Below, piece after piece: positions 37,334 through 45,777 of a stretch of 64,000 nucleotides of DNA. The stretch's first letter is position 1; each line of letters begins with the position of its first letter. The notes under the pieces are model-generated. The model saw only the letters and a list, made by a program, of their open reading frames with translations, made no database searches and had not been told where the DNA came from. The stretch spans positions 25,668,001 to 25,732,000 of the forward strand of contig OZ024757.1 of NCBI GenBank assembly GCA_964016885.1. The letters are read 5' to 3'. The translations under genes and the position numbers were made by a program. Source of the DNA: Eledone cirrhosa. Its lineage: Eukaryota.

Positions 37334-37420
<87 letters not shown>

Positions 37421-37425
<5 letters not shown>

Positions 37426-37550
37426 AGTCATAAACAACATAAAATAATTATTTCATTTACCAGTGGTTTCTTGAAGACATATATGTATGTCTGTCTCAAG
37501 AAACCACTGGTAAATGAAATAATTTATCTTATGTTGTTTATTACATAACT
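37421..37550. repeat. Fold-back inverted repeat abutting (TA)n, with a third arm copy at ~37666-37720
   Basis: ttatttcatttaccagtggtttcttga ... tcaagaaaccactggtaaatgaaataa. Confidence 0.75.
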
Positions 37551-37613
37551 ACAAAGCTCTGTACCCTACATAGAGCACTCTCTTTTCCTTTACCTTTCCT
37601 ACGGAAATACTTC

Positions 37614-37653
<40 letters not shown>

Positions 37654-37738
37654 ATATATATATTTAGTTATGTAATAAATAACATAAGATAATTATTTCA
37701 TTTACCAGTGGCTTCTTGAAAGCAAACAAATCTGCTTT

Positions 37739-37965
<227 letters not shown>

Positions 37966-38632: not shown

Positions 38633-38707
<75 letters not shown>

Positions 38708-38716
38708 ACATATATA

Positions 38717-38777
<61 letters not shown>

Positions 38778-38832
38778 CATATATATATTTATATATATAT
38801 ATATATATATATAACATATATATTTATATATA

Positions 38833-39753
38833 TGAATATAGACATAGAATATTCGAAAATATTCTGTATGTTTATAATAAACATTTTGAAGACCTAATCG
38901 CTATAGAATAGAATACGTCACGTATTACAATTAGATTCTCGACAAAAGCAAGGGAAGTAAATCTACGCGTTTCATTCTTATTAGAAATCGTCAGGACTAC
39001 ATATCCAGTGCTTCTATCGAGAATGACACAGCTAGAGACTTATAGAATACTTAGCTGTGTACAGGAACTGGTTTGAAAGAGCGGTTGCCGGTCCGGCAGA
39101 AATTAGAAATTGGAATAAATGCTCTGAAATAGCGATATATATGTGAATATAGACATAGAATATTCGAAAATATTCTGTATGTTTATAATAAACATTTTGA
39201 AGACCTAATCGCTATAGAATAGAATACGTCACGTATTACAATTAGATTCTCGACAAAAGCAAGGGAAGTAAATCTACGCGTTTCATTCTTATTAGAAATC
39301 GTCAGGACTACATATCCAGTGCTTCTATCGAGAATGACACAGCTAGAGACTTATAGAATACTTAGCTGTGTACAGGAACTGGTTTGAAAGAGCGGTTGCC
39401 GGTCCGGCAGAAATTAGAAATTGGAATAAATGCTCTGAAATAGCGATATATATGTGAATATAGACATAGAATATTCGAAAATATTCTGTATGTTTATAAT
39501 AAACATTTTGAAGACCTAATCGCTATAGAATAGAATACGTCACGTATTACAATTAGATTCTCGACAAAAGCAAGGGAAGTAAATCTACGCGTTTCATTCT
39601 TATTAGAAATCGTCAGGACTACATATCCAGTGCTTCTATCGAGAATGACACAGCTAGAGACTTATAGAATACTTAGCTGTGTACAGGAACTGGTTTGAAA
39701 GAGCGGTTGCCGGTCCGGCAGAAATTAGAAATTGGAATAAATGCTCTGAAATA
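38833..39753 (-). repeat. 311-bp HHR-containing tandem repeat, inverted block (~2.96 monomers)
   Basis: gaatatagac at 38834, 39145 and 39456. Reverse complement of the downstream monomer. Confidence 0.95.
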
Positions 39754-42700
39754 TAATTTCTGCCGGACCGGCAACCGCTCTTTCAAACCAGTTCCTGTAC
39801 ACAGCTAAGTATTCTATAAGTCTCTAGCTGTGTCATTCTCGATAGAAGCACTGGATATGTAGTCCTGACGATTTCTAATAAGAATGAAACGCGTAGATTT
39901 ACTTCCCTTGCTTTTGTCGAGAATCTAATTGTAATACGTGACGTATTCTATTCTATAGCGATTAGGTCTTCAAAATGTTTATTATAAACATACAGAATAT
40001 TTTCGAATATTCTATGTCTATATTCACATATATATCGCTATTTCAGAGCATTTATTCCAATTTCTAATTTCTGCCGGACCGGCAACCGCTCTTTCAAACC
40101 AGTTCCTGTACACAGCTAAGTATTCTATAAGTCTCTAGCTGTGTCATTCTCGATAGAAGCACTGGATATGTAGTCCTGACGATTTCTAATAAGAATGAAA
40201 CGCGTAGATTTACTTCCCTTGCTTTTGTCGAGAATCTAATTGTAATACGTGACGTATTCTATTCTATAGCGATTAGGTCTTCAAAATGTTTATTATAAAC
40301 ATACAGAATATTTTCGAATATTCTATGTCTATATTCACATATATATCGCTATTTCAGAGCATTTATTCCAATTTCTAATTTCTGCCGGACCGGCAACCGC
40401 TCTTTCAAACCAGTTCCTGTACACAGCTAAGTATTCTATAAGTCTCTAGCTGTGTCATTCTCGATAGAAGCACTGGATATGTAGTCCTGACGATTTCTAA
40501 TAAGAATGAAACGCGTAGATTTACTTCCCTTGCTTTTGTCGAGAATCTAATTGTAATACGTGACGTATTCTATTCTATAGCGATTAGGTCTTCAAAATGT
40601 TTATTATAAACATACAGAATATTTTCGAATATTCTATGTCTATATTCACATATATATCGCTATTTCAGAGCATTTATTCCAATTTCTAATTTCTGCCGGA
40701 CCGGCAACCGCTCTTTCAAACCAGTTCCTGTACACAGCTAAGTATTCTATAAGTCTCTAGCTGTGTCATTCTCGATAGAAGCACTGGATATGTAGTCCTG
40801 ACGATTTCTAATAAGAATGAAACGCGTAGATTTACTTCCCTTGCTTTTGTCGAGAATCTAATTGTAATACGTGACGTATTCTATTCTATAGCGATTAGGT
40901 CTTCAAAATGTTTATTATAAACATACAGAATATTTTCGAATATTCTATGTCTATATTCACATATATATCGCTATTTCAGAGCATTTATTCCAATTTCTAA
41001 TTTCTGCCGGACCGGCAACCGCTCTTTCAAACCAGTTCCTGTACACAGCTAAGTATTCTATAAGTCTCTAGCTGTGTCATTCTCGATAGAAGCACTGGAT
41101 ATGTAGTCCTGACGATTTCTAATAAGAATGAAACGCGTAGATTTACTTCCCTTGCTTTTGTCGAGAATCTAATTGTAATACGTGACGTATTCTATTCTAT
41201 AGCGATTAGGTCTTCAAAATGTTTATTATAAACATACAGAATATTTTCGAATATTCTATGTCTATATTCACATATATATCGCTATTTCAGAGCATTTATT
41301 CCAATTTCTAATTTCTGCCGGACCGGCAACCGCTCTTTCAAACCAGTTCCTGTACACAGCTAAGTATTCTATAAGTCTCTAGCTGTGTCATTCTCGATAG
41401 AAGCACTGGATATGTAGTCCTGACGATTTCTAATAAGAATGAAACGCGTAGATTTACTTCCCTTGCTTTTGTCGAGAATCTAATTTTAATACGTGACGTA
41501 TTCTATTCTATAGCGATTAGGTCTTCAAAATGTTTATTATAAACATACAGAATATTTTCGAATATTCTATGTCTATATTCACATATATATCGCTATTTCA
41601 GAGCATTTATTCCAATTTCTAATTTCTGCCGGACCGGCAACCGCTCTTTCAAACCAGTTCCTGTACACAGCTAAGTATTCTATAAGTCTCTAGCTGTGTC
41701 ATTCTCGATAGAAGCACTGGATATGTAGTCCTGACGATTTCTAATAAGAATGAAACGCGTAGATTTACTTCCCTTGCTTTTGTCGAGAATCTAATTGTAA
41801 TACGTGACGTATTCTATTCTATAGCGATTAGGTCTTCAAAATGTTTATTATAAACATACAGAATATTTTCGAATATTCTATGTCTATATTCACATATATA
41901 TCGCTATTTCAGAGCATTTATTCCAATTTCTAATTTCTGCCGGACCGGCAACCGCTCTTTCAAACCAGTTCCTGTACACAGCTAAGTATTCTATAAGTCT
42001 CTAGCTGTGTCATTCTCGATAGAAGCACTGGATATGTAGTCCTGACGATTTCTAATAAGAATGAAACGCGTAGATTTACTTCCCTTGCTTTTGTCGAGAA
42101 TCTAATTGTAATACGTGACGTATTCTATTCTATAGCGATTAGGTCTTCAAAATGTTTATTATAAACATACAGAATATTTTCGAATATTCTATGTCTATAT
42201 TCACATATATATCGCTATTTCAGAGCATTTATTCCAATTTCTAATTTCTGCCGGACCGGCAACCGCTCTTTCAAACCAGTTCCTGTACACAGCTAAGTAT
42301 TCTATAAGTCTCTAGCTGTGTCATTCTCGATAGAAGCACTGGATATGTAGTCCTGACGATTTCTAATAAGAATGAAACGCGTAGATTTACTTCCCTTGCT
42401 TTTGTCGAGAATCTAATTGTAATACGTGACGTATTCTATTCTATAGCGATTAGGTCTTCAAAATGTTTATTATAAACATACAGAATATTTTCGAATATTC
42501 TATGTCTATATTCACATATATATCGCTATTTCAGAGCATTTATTCCAATTTCTAATTTCTGCCGGACCGGCAACCGCTCTTTCAAACCAGTTCCTGTACA
42601 CAGCTAAGTATTCTATAAGTCTCTAGCTGTGTCATTCTCGATAGAAGCACTGGATATGTAGTCCTGACGATTTCTAATAAGAATGAAACGCGTAGATTTA

Positions 42701-45351
42701 CTTCCCTTGCTTTTGTCGAGAATCTAATTGTAATACGTGACGTATTCTATTCTATAGCGATTAGGTCTTCAAAATGTTTATTATAAACATACAGAATATT
42801 TTCGAATATTCTATGTCTATATTCACATATATATCGCTATTTCAGAGCATTTATTCCAATTTCTAATTTCTGCCGGACCGGCAACCGCTCTTTCAAACCA
42901 GTTCCTGTACACAGCTAAGTATTCTATAAGTCTCTAGCTGTGTCATTCTCGATAGAAGCACTGGATATGTAGTCCTGACGATTTCTAATAAGAATGAAAC
43001 GCGTAGATTTACTTCCCTTGCTTTTGTCGAGAATCTAATTGTAATACGTGACGTATTCTATTCTATAGCGATTAGGTCTTCAAAATGTTTATTATAAACA
43101 TACAGAATATTTTCGAATATTCTATGTCTATATTCACATATATATCGCTATTTCAGAGCATTTATTCCAATTTCTAATTTCTGCCGGACCGGCAACCGCT
43201 CTTTCAAACCAGTTCCTGTACACAGCTAAGTATTCTATAAGTCTCTAGCTGTGTCATTCTCGATAGAAGCACTGGATATGTAGTCCTGACGATTTCTAAT
43301 AAGAATGAAACGCGTAGATTTACTTCCCTTGCTTTTGTCGAGAATCTAATTGTAATACGTGACGTATTCTATTCTATAGCGATTAGGTCTTCAAAATGTT
43401 TATTATAAACATACAGAATATTTTCGAATATTCTATGTCTATATTCACATATATATCGCTATTTCAGAGCATTTATTCCAATTTCTAATTTCTGCCGGAC
43501 CGGCAACCGCTCTTTCAAACCAGTTCCTGTACACAGCTAAGTATTCTATAAGTCTCTAGCTGTGTCATTCTCGATAGAAGCACTGGATATGTAGTCCTGA
43601 CGATTTCTAATAAGAATGAAACGCGTAGATTTACTTCCCTTGCTTTTGTCGAGAATCTAATTGTAATACGTGACGTATTCTATTCTATAGCGATTAGGTC
43701 TTCAAAATGTTTATTATAAACATACAGAATATTTTCGAATATTCTATGTCTATATTCACATATATATCGCTATTTCAGAGCATTTATTCCAATTTCTAAT
43801 TTCTGCCGGACCGGCAACCGCTCTTTCAAACCAGTTCCTGTACACAGCTAAGTATTCTATAAGTCTCTAGCTGTGTCATTCTCGATAGAAGCACTGGATA
43901 TGTAGTCCTGACGATTTCTAATAAGAATGAAACGCGTAGATTTACTTCCCTTGCTTTTGTCGAGAATCTAATTGTAATACGTGACGTATTCTATTCTATA
44001 GCGATTAGGTCTTCAAAATGTTTATTATAAACATACAGAATATTTTCGAATATTCTATGTCTATATTCACATATATATCGCTATTTCAGAGCATTTATTC
44101 CAATTTCTAATTTCTGCCGGACCGGCAACCGCTCTTTCAAACCAGTTCCTGTACACAGCTAAGTATTCTATAAGTCTCTAGCTGTGTCATTCTCGATAGA
44201 AGCACTGGATATGTAGTCCTGACGATTTCTAATAAGAATGAAACGCGTAGATTTACTTCCCTTGCTTTTGTCGAGAATCTAATTGTAATACGTGACGTAT
44301 TCTATTCTATAGCGATTAGGTCTTCAAAATGTTTATTATAAACATACAGAATATTTTCGAATATTCTATGTCTATATTCACATATATATCGCTATTTCAG
44401 AGCATTTATTCCAATTTCTAATTTCTGCCGGACCGGCAACCGCTCTTTCAAACCAGTTCCTGTACACAGCTAAGTATTCTATAAGTCTCTAGCTGTGTCA
44501 TTCTCGATAGAAGCACTGGATATGTAGTCCTGACGATTTCTAATAAGAATGAAACGCGTAGATTTACTTCCCTTGCTTTTGTCGAGAATCTAATTGTAAT
44601 ACGTGACGTATTCTATTCTATAGCGATTAGGTCTTCAAAATGTTTATTATAAACATACAGAATATTTTCGAATATTCTATGTCTATATTCACATATATAT
44701 CGCTATTTCAGAGCATTTATTCCAATTTCTAATTTCTGCCGGACCGGCAACCGCTCTTTCAAACCAGTTCCTGTACACAGCTAAGTATTCTATAAGTCTC
44801 TAGCTGTGTCATTCTCGATAGAAGCACTGGATATGTAGTCCTGACGATTTCTAATAAGAATGAAACGCGTAGATTTACTTCCCTTGCTTTTGTCGAGAAT
44901 CTAATTGTAATACGTGACGTATTCTATTCTATAGCGATTAGGTCTTCAAAATGTTTATTATAAACATACAGAATATTTTCGAATATTCTATGTCTATATT
45001 CACATATATATCGCTATTTCAGAGCATTTATTCCAATTTCTAATTTCTGCCGGACCGGCAACCGCTCTTTCAAACCAGTTCCTGTACACAGCTAAGTATT
45101 CTATAAGTCTCTAGCTGTGTCATTCTCGATAGAAGCACTGGATATGTAGTCCTGACGATTTCTAATAAGAATGAAACGCGTAGATTTACTTCCCTTGCTT
45201 TTGTCGAGAATCTAATTGTAATACGTGACGTATTCTATTCTATAGCGATTAGGTCTTCAAAATGTTTATTATAAACATACAGAATATTTTCGAATATTCT
45301 ATGTCTATATTCACATATATATCGCTATTTCAGAGCATTTATTCCAATTTC
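39754..45351 (+). mobile_element. Retrozyme-like array: 18 x 311-bp monomers, each with a minimal hammerhead
   Basis: tgccggaccg at 39761, 40072 ... 42871 (period 311). I noticed only one substitution (~41486). Confidence 0.9.
39859..39902 (+). ncRNA. Minimal type-I hammerhead ribozyme of the first forward monomer (repeats every 311 nt), predicted cleavage after 39895
   Basis: gtAGTC-CTGACGA-tTTCT aata AGAAt-GAAA-CGCG-TA-GATTtac. Intact CUGANGA/GAAA core, GUA site and palindromic CGCG loop III. Confidence 0.9.
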
Positions 45352-45393
<42 letters not shown>

Positions 45394-45777
45394 CATATAT
45401 ATATTTATATATATATATATATATATATATAACATATATATATTTATATATATACATATATAAAACAGAGAACGAAGGACAAACACAGACAGAGATATGA
45501 ACTCTCCTCTCTAAATATGTATGTAAAAACTAATAATTTTTCTTCCCCTTTTTATTATTCGTATAAATATGCACATAACTACATTATGCATATCCCGCAG
45601 TTAAAAAAGCATATAATGCTGAAACCGGTACCATTATTAAATGCGGAAATATCCACTTTATAAATAAATGTTTTGATATTATACTGAAAGAATCACCATT
45701 ATCTACTGAAAACATCTTTTTCCTCTCTACTATTTGTTTTTATATATATATCAACTCGTGTTTTACTTTTCTACATT

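Follow-up and report, generated by a model that had tools for sequence, protein, structure and literature searches.

The 64,000-nt stretch of the Eledone cirrhosa genome analysed here (the window; contig OZ024757.1, positions 25,668,001 to 25,732,000) holds a tandem array of short, non-coding units with hammerhead ribozymes, and this array is a single insertion of a dispersed repeat family. We consider it probable that it represents a recent insertion of a non-autonomous retrozyme without long terminal repeats (non-LTR retrozyme), built in the act of insertion by a Penelope-like element (PLE) that uses both target strands as primers and a circular monomer as template. The components of this reading differ in firmness: we are highly confident that PLE machinery primes from both strands and that the array is multimeric at birth, and we regard a monomeric circle as the likely template. 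The family is new and very young, and it is the anatomy of its insertions that constitutes the new part, the class itself being known.

The array in the window has a period of 311 nt and comprises 2.96 units in inverted and 18.00 in direct orientation (Table 1), numbered such that position 1 is the base after the predicted ribozyme cut, 39896. A type I hammerhead core with helices I–III is present in 21 of 21 units, 18 on the plus and 3 on the minus strand, all of them exact; 18 of the 19 complete units are identical, the remaining one carrying 41486 G>T. There is no open reading frame of at least 120 amino acids inside the array, and the unit encodes no protein. These counts bear out an earlier note, made from the letters of this DNA alone, which had described about 21 near-identical non-coding monomers. 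The span of 38833–45351 given there is correct at its start and one base short at its end, since the last matching base is 45352. Similarly, the 311-nt monomer holds for the window, whereas the commonest unit of the family is 310 nt, and the internal inversion is real, although as the rule of the family rather than a peculiarity of this locus. The unit has a GC content of 0.34–0.35 and folds better than shuffled sequences, with z scores of -3.4 in linear form (1 of 100 shuffles being equally good) and -3.65 in circular form.

The degenerate core pattern has 16,278 exact matches in the microsatellite-rich 3.0-Gb genome and none for the reversed control, which excludes a chance origin. The first 100 matches form 16 clusters, and the family extrapolates, as a rough estimate, to ~2,600 loci and ~5 Mb. 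Since arrays were found on many contigs, the young, dispersed family that the earlier note had proposed is upheld, and the local satellite without dispersed copies that it had set against this proposal fails. We examined 71 loci, a small part of the family: the window, 16 found by similarity, 34 by one type of outer end (B, defined below), 15 by the other (A) and 5 by the core, the end- and core-picked loci all coming from one contig.

Among these 71 loci, 56 are complete with two arms, 10 have a single arm, 4 are incomplete in the extracted stretch and 1 abuts an N gap; two arms are present in 60, namely the 56 complete loci, 3 that were incompletely extracted and L070, by its listed far end. 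All 56 complete two-arm loci are arranged tail-out, with one outer end at unit position ~126–140 (site A) and the other at ~159–173 (site B), and not one A+A, B+B or head-out pair occurs among them. The ends were assigned by script in 54 loci and by eye in two, L042 with its very short B arm and L087 with private single-nucleotide polymorphisms (SNPs) near site A. The A+B rule is likewise obeyed by all 19 complete loci that had not been picked by an end, an outcome to which independent end choice would give a probability of 0.5^19, or ~2e-6, by our own arithmetic. Genome-wide, we counted 1,013 exact position-166 B ends and 1,185 A ends adjoining (TA)n, with 0 in each reversed control, so that both kinds of end are about equally frequent, and the missing ends of L070 and L071 appear in the A-end list. 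AT microhomology between unit and target makes it difficult to place the starts to the exact base. Arrays end in (TA)n and never at the ribozyme cut, and both flanks are TA-rich in 52 of the 56 loci (17 of the 19 not picked by an end), compared to 6% of control positions.

This anatomy resembles that of PLEs, which are described as targeting (TA)n and having an inverted 5'-truncated copy and a tail of 30–40 bp that is often confined to one end (PMC8557442). On AT-rich DNA, a PLE protein, predicted to be a dimer, cleaves both strands and extends each of them, and the tail is the gap between two internal reverse transcriptase (RT) start sites (PMC11167929); the ~35-nt offset between sites A and B is such a tail. 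Target-site duplications of metazoan non-LTR retrozymes, when present, are longer than 4 bp. Here, an informative direct repeat at the target was seen in 9 of the 56 loci, and 4 of these repeats occur only twice (15–38 bp), while the rest are masked by (TA)n; long target duplications of 40–100 bp as a general feature were not upheld across the 56 loci. The matching interruptions in both (TA)n flanks of the window array could reflect either an extended but imperfect duplication of the target or an older repeat of compound type.

While the outer ends are fixed, the inner ends are scattered, with 2 of 118 within 10 nt of the cut where 7.6 were expected. Cleaved linear monomers can thus be ruled out as the template, as the inner ends do not pile up at the cut. 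The arms are joined by 1–7 nt of microhomology in 38 of 59 tabulated junctions (58 unique, the L128 row repeating that of L071) and by 16 nt in one, 8 being blunt and 12 carrying added, mostly locally templated bases, and no junction phase pair recurs between separate insertions. Arms are mostly long, 85 of 110 exceeding two units, with a median of 3.8 and a maximum of 18, and whole arrays range from <1 to ~22 units. Near the inner ends of L043, L046 and L059 we also noticed short jumps, stutters or a doubled junction, as from template switching.

Each array is in addition close to clonal. Of the 494 units in the 64 loci that contain full ones, 441 match the majority of their locus (a few are counted twice, the L128 stretch overlapping that of L071), and both arms share the majority haplotype in 35 of 40 loci, the other five differing by one SNP. 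The 64 loci carry 36 haplotypes, 28 of which are private to one locus, where they form the majority; that of the window is private. Among 1,081 random pairs of loci picked by an end or by the core, 76 have a haplotype in common, and loci differ by only ~3.7 changes. Long arrays with one private haplotype in both arms imply that one unit was copied many times without scars at the cut site.

According to the reading we favour, an array would be transcribed, neighbouring hammerheads would pair through their palindromic helix III and cut, and the 310/311-nt monomer would be circularised. A Penelope-like RT/GIY-YIG protein, probably a dimer, would then bind the RNA near a hairpin at positions 99–118 and, as the anatomy suggests, nick both strands of a (TA)n microsatellite, whereupon one nick would prime at site A and the other at site B, the ends being observed and the enzyme presumed. 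As the products show, each copy passes the cut site repeatedly, for 0.2–18 turns, and both copies are joined head to head, mostly by the short microhomology described above. This yields a two-arm array, tail-out and with one haplotype throughout, that would be complete from the moment of insertion and could itself serve as a new source. The PLE-mobilised retrozyme suggested in the earlier note gains support from the anatomy of the insertions, that is, from the A+B ends in 56 of 56 loci, the tail and the (TA)n target. One could go further and speculate, tentatively and without leaning towards it, that the arrays preserve in the genome the traces of rolling-circle reverse transcription in an animal, in which a PLE dimer would hold one ribozyme-made 310-nt circle at the conserved hairpin and its subunits would start at A and B on opposite strands, writing up to 18 turns directly into the chromosome. 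If true, this route would also account for the 4-kb units that the autonomous PLEs of this genome form in tandem and inverted order, and the hairpin-plus-start module would be a portable signal loading any small circle onto a PLE.

A number of observations weigh against a PLE copying a ribozyme-made circle. Ten of the 71 loci are single-armed, target-site duplications are mostly not discernible, the inner ends depart mildly from uniform (Kolmogorov-Smirnov p = 0.04), and one arm of L080 contains a change of haplotype that is not accounted for by a single circle. No partner emerged among the four PLE families that we found here, the alignment of the post-cut unit being no better than shuffles (101 of 200 shuffles reached the score for PLE1, 75 for PLE2, 19 for PLE3 and 90 for PLE4) in a search that took in four of the PLE families of a genome that has more. 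Transcript, cleavage and circle are predictions, and of nine Xenopus retrozyme dimers eight failed to cleave (10.64898/2026.07.22.740005). Here the G10.1-C11.1 pair is absent from the ribozyme, which Rfam misses, stem I is weak in the window haplotype, which has nevertheless spread to other loci, and an anole PLE in vitro mainly uses uncleaved RNA, its ribozyme mutants still being inserted (PMC11167929). The weak stem I, the U.U base of stem II and the preference of the anole enzyme would also fit a PLE priming from both strands on an uncut linear multimer from an existing array, with circles rare or absent and the ribozyme of little importance, and such a template predicts the avoidance of the cut site by the inner ends equally well. 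We nevertheless hold it to be unlikely, since copying a multimer can only shorten the arms and should pass single-unit variants and donor junctions on to daughters. What is observed instead are private haplotypes (28 of 36), no recurring junction and arms of up to 18 units (median 3.8), and a step from monomer to multimer is therefore needed; moreover, compensatory change keeps the ribozyme stems across families.

Tandem repeats can also expand in place, and a short PLE-type insertion of one or two units could have grown by unequal crossover or DNA rolling-circle amplification, its arms being homogenised by gene conversion. The range of array sizes, from <1 to ~22 units, is compatible with such growth, and L080 may reflect conversion between arms. 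However, the loci, although only ~3.7 changes apart, mostly carry long arrays that are clonal in both of the inverted arms, the arms do not measure whole numbers of units, the outer ends are fixed and the inner ones scattered, and the autonomous PLEs show the same tandem-plus-inverted form with units of 3.6–4.3 kb, for which reasons we find local growth very improbable. Least probable of all, to the point of being hardly credible, is that the inversion, homogeneity or length is an assembly artefact from fold-back reads or consensus polishing. A single assembly was examined, and polishing can erase differences between units, but fold-back would mirror the flanks and repeat one end, whereas here the flanks differ and the ends are A+B in 56 of 56 loci. 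Locus-specific haplotypes also survive, and contigs of sequencing run X1 show unit ends entering (TA)n at 40035 (position 140) and 40066 (position 171).

The motif itself runs in the order CUGANGA, a 4-bp stem II, GAAA, helix III and UA, followed by the cut, across which stem I closes; plus-strand cuts are predicted after 39895 + 311n, the last after 45182. Type I hammerheads with a short palindromic helix III are the canonical metazoan form and active only as dimers (PMC4209133), so that in the terms of that paper the label of a minimal ribozyme in the earlier note does not apply. The self-duplex of helix III, ACGCGU, is predicted at -7.5 kcal/mol. In the 311-nt variant of the window an extra U weakens stem I, to -1.3 from -5.0 kcal/mol in the common 310-nt form, and the window array may for this reason cut poorly. 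The closing pair of stem II, G10.1-C11.1, which is highly conserved in hammerheads (PMC4209133), is replaced by U.U in most haplotypes and by A-U in 6 of 36, and U.U is also found at this place in sister family A, a ~484-nt family, PLE3 and PLE4 (see below). An Rfam search of the window gave 0 matches at the gathering score, and one of 39800–40600 gave no hammerhead family at E<=10, just three chance matches with E of 3–6; the assignment therefore rests on motif and covariation, not on a library match.

Across the 36 haplotypes N7 alone varies within CUGANGA (C, U or A), in a comparison where the 3' part of the core, required for splitting the units, could not vary. Variants of stem I compensate each other, a change at position 288 can turn U.U into A-U, and in two older sister families the letters of stems I–III differ yet still pair (one unit per family compared). 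That stems are rewritten but stay paired, while N7 takes three states, supports selection on the RNA structure of the ribozyme, as far as sequence comparison can tell. Stem I is extended by a long predicted stem pairing positions ~14–29 with ~251–266, in which pairing is maintained or even strengthened by the variants often found at 21, 259, 260 and 261. The hairpin at 99–118 retains full pairing in each of the sister families, although both bases differ in 4 of its 8 pairs (read by eye, from three families, the structure being derived from the same alignment), and is our best candidate for a binding or start signal of the reverse transcriptase.

The two sister families have units of 318 and 342 nt with 68% and 55% identity (one unit each), and they appear from their sequences to be successive waves of one lineage. 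A first look gave 2,273 and 3,154 candidates; in the loci inspected (L201–L207, L193, L197) the A and B ends are the same and the arrays shorter and more diverged. A further hammerhead repeat of ~484–502 nt has an internal (TA)n tract and forms tandem and inverted arrays, sharing the U.U stem II base and the palindromic helix III with the retrozyme; it lies at L063:2688-5815 (minus-strand numbering) and also in L041, L042, L048, L065, L091, L126, L138 and L141. Separate retrozyme insertions with different haplotypes can be neighbours, as on G000 C1 at 43.58–43.59 Mb (L128 and L071, ~1 kb apart) and at 15.42–15.44 Mb (L064 and L139, ~6 kb apart), and arrays often occupy (TA)n that remains where another PLE-type insertion ends. 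Contigs of four of the six listed sequencing runs, of unrecorded kind, were examined (X1, X4, X5 and X6). In X4, X5 and X6, labelled as three other organisms, one clean, low-depth contig each, with 3–4 differences, closes a 310-nt unit on itself. Tandem DNA and a circle would both give this closure, and related species, diet, contamination and RNA are all possible sources of these contigs.

Three of the four PLE families have many near-identical long open frames. PLE1 has 4,286-nt units with a 1,278-residue frame, occurs in tandem and inverted copies, is identical over the endonuclease domain in 150 of 150 scored matches, and ends at +164/+224 after its ribozyme in 3 of 3 complete pairs, which gives a tail of 60 nt. 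A Pfam search of its protein returned 0 families, and its look-alikes in Atlas are RT, HTH_animal and GIY-YIG at 0.96–0.98. PLE2 has a 785-residue frame. PLE3 has ~4.2-kb units with a 775-residue frame and ends about +124/+159 after its cut, with a tail of ~35 nt in 3 of 3 complete pairs; it is the best geometric fit as a partner, but 19 of 200 shuffles reach its alignment score. In all three long copies of PLE3 (L180, L181, L183) the coding region is split into frames of ~476 and 775 residues, possibly by an intron or a programmed frameshift. In PLE1 and PLE3 the GIY-YIG domain is preceded by a CX4CxxC linker, as described for Neptune and Nematis (PMC11167929), a likeness judged by motif, not by a tree. 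PLE4 (L184–L200) has 6,508 exact core matches, starts at about +25 and +94 and a tail of ~68 nt; its ribozyme core is nearly identical to that of the retrozyme, stem II included, but helix III differs, and the ribozyme module may have been exchanged between families. Relatives of 75–79% identity, considered as PLE partners, turned out to be the sister retrozyme families.

The PLE neighbourhood that the earlier note had found striking is weak evidence, because PLE pieces occur everywhere in the genome. Within the window, a PLE1 3' fragment at 361–2461 forms a tail-out inverted pair in (TA)n with its own hammerheads and ends at +224/+164, its GIY-YIG frame lying at 918–1448 on the minus and 1445–1963 on the plus strand, with a further piece at ~4205–4540. 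Short inverted pairs from the PLE3 3' end lie at 20686–21110 and 28424–28850; most short copies of this kind stop at a hairpin 30–40 nt upstream of the ribozyme, giving palindromes like those of miniature inverted-repeat transposable elements. Hammerhead-like PLE-type fragments are also present at 37420–37740, as inverted pieces around (TA)n, and at ~16600–16650 on the minus strand.

Table 1 Features of the retrozyme array in the window (positions of the window; ribozyme and RNA features are predictions)
Feature	Position	Strand	Description
(TA)n target microsatellite, left	38694..38832		AAC/TTT interruptions
Left arm	38833..39753	-	2.96 units, inverted, RNA 3' side outward
Left arm ends		-	outer, unit position 131 (start site A); inner, position 144
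Left-arm hammerheads (three)	38957..39622	-	predicted cuts 39586, 39275, 38964
Head-to-head arm junction	39753..39754		blunt, without overlap or added bases
Right arm	39754..45352	+	18.00 units; inner end at unit position 170, outer at position 170 (start site B)
First plus-strand hammerhead	39859..39902	+	putatively active
Stem I of this hammerhead	39859-39864; 39896-39902	+	5' strand; 3' strand with one extra U
Core of this hammerhead	39865-39895	+	4-bp stem II on U.U base, palindromic helix III ACGCGU; predicted cut after 39895
First complete unit	39896..40206	+	spans one cut to the next; 311-nt RNA predicted, as monomer or circle
Long stem extending stem I	39909..40161	+	positions ~14-29 with ~251-266
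Hairpin, unit positions 99-118	39994..40013	+	8 bp, 4-nt loop, just 5' of start site A; one per unit
Sole variant base in array	41486	+	G>T, position 36 of sixth complete plus-strand unit
Tail, unit positions 132-170	45314..45352	+	at right outer end; missing from left outer end
(TA)n target microsatellite, right	45353..45462		identical interruptions, orientation matching left side

Our literature search turned up neither an account of the family nor any report of retrozyme arrays with two arms and a tail; it left repeat databases and supplements aside, where the family may be catalogued as a satellite or PLE fragment. In the sections of the papers examined, the two-start, two-arm signature of PLEs is not reported for retrozymes, and reverse transcription round a circle by a PLE is a published hypothesis (PMC7229834, PMC4209133). 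The mechanism of retrozyme mobility has been called unresolved, and local growth by unequal crossover discussed (10.64898/2026.07.22.740005). Partners among the PLEs are inferred in these papers from co-occurrence and pLTR similarity (PMC7229834, PMC7761336, PMC6765202, 10.64898/2026.07.22.740005), the repeats showing, in the sections drawn on, no conserved motif that would indicate one (PMC7761336). Here, thousands of young insertions have ends that indicate the class of enzyme and fix two start sites within a few bases. They suggest a rule of one start per strand, which the in vitro PLE study did not resolve (PMC11167929). The array ends offer a direct test of how animal retrozymes spread and, with intact candidate enzymes in the same genome, the question of circle versus multimer is open to direct test.

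In LINE-1 (L1) twin priming the first primer sits at the poly(A) end and the second at any internal position, with inversions making up the smaller share of insertions; in the window family the two starts lie at fixed positions inside the unit, 35 nt from each other, and 60 of 71 loci have two arms. What is shared with twin priming is the head-to-head joining of two target-primed copies by short microhomology (PMC2837659). Plant LTR retrozymes are likewise non-autonomous and thought to move via a ribozyme-made circle (PMC4918200, PMC7229834), but of their type III ribozyme, LTRs, tRNA primer site and 4-bp duplications, as presented in those sections, none is seen in the window family. Closer are the metazoan non-LTR retrozymes of coral, mussel and axolotl and newt satellite 2, whose non-coding tandem units of 150–450 bp have a GC content <50%, each contain a single type I hammerhead with a weak palindromic helix III and occur in thousands of dispersed copies, in genomes that also hold PLEs (PMC7229834, PMC7761336, 10.64898/2026.07.22.740005). 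The family fits those retrozyme features, as given there and in PMC6765202, that can be assessed from sequence. It differs from metazoan retrozymes as described in these sections by its two-arm tail-out arrays, paired starts, (TA)n targeting, conserved start-site hairpin, and a stem II on U.U rather than G-C; circles have been demonstrated in the coral, mussel, axolotl and newt group, and are a prediction for the window family. With GIY-YIG PLEs it shares the inverted 5'-truncated copy, a 30–40-nt tail at one end, the AT-rich or (TA)n target, tandem copies and an internal start downstream of a hammerhead (PMC8557442, PMC11167929, PMC4209133). Unlike PLEs, the 310/311-nt unit codes for no RT/GIY-YIG protein and is repeated for up to 18 turns per arm, and it shares no significant post-cut sequence with the four families compared in this genome. 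The family thus works like a non-autonomous PLE but is not a PLE.

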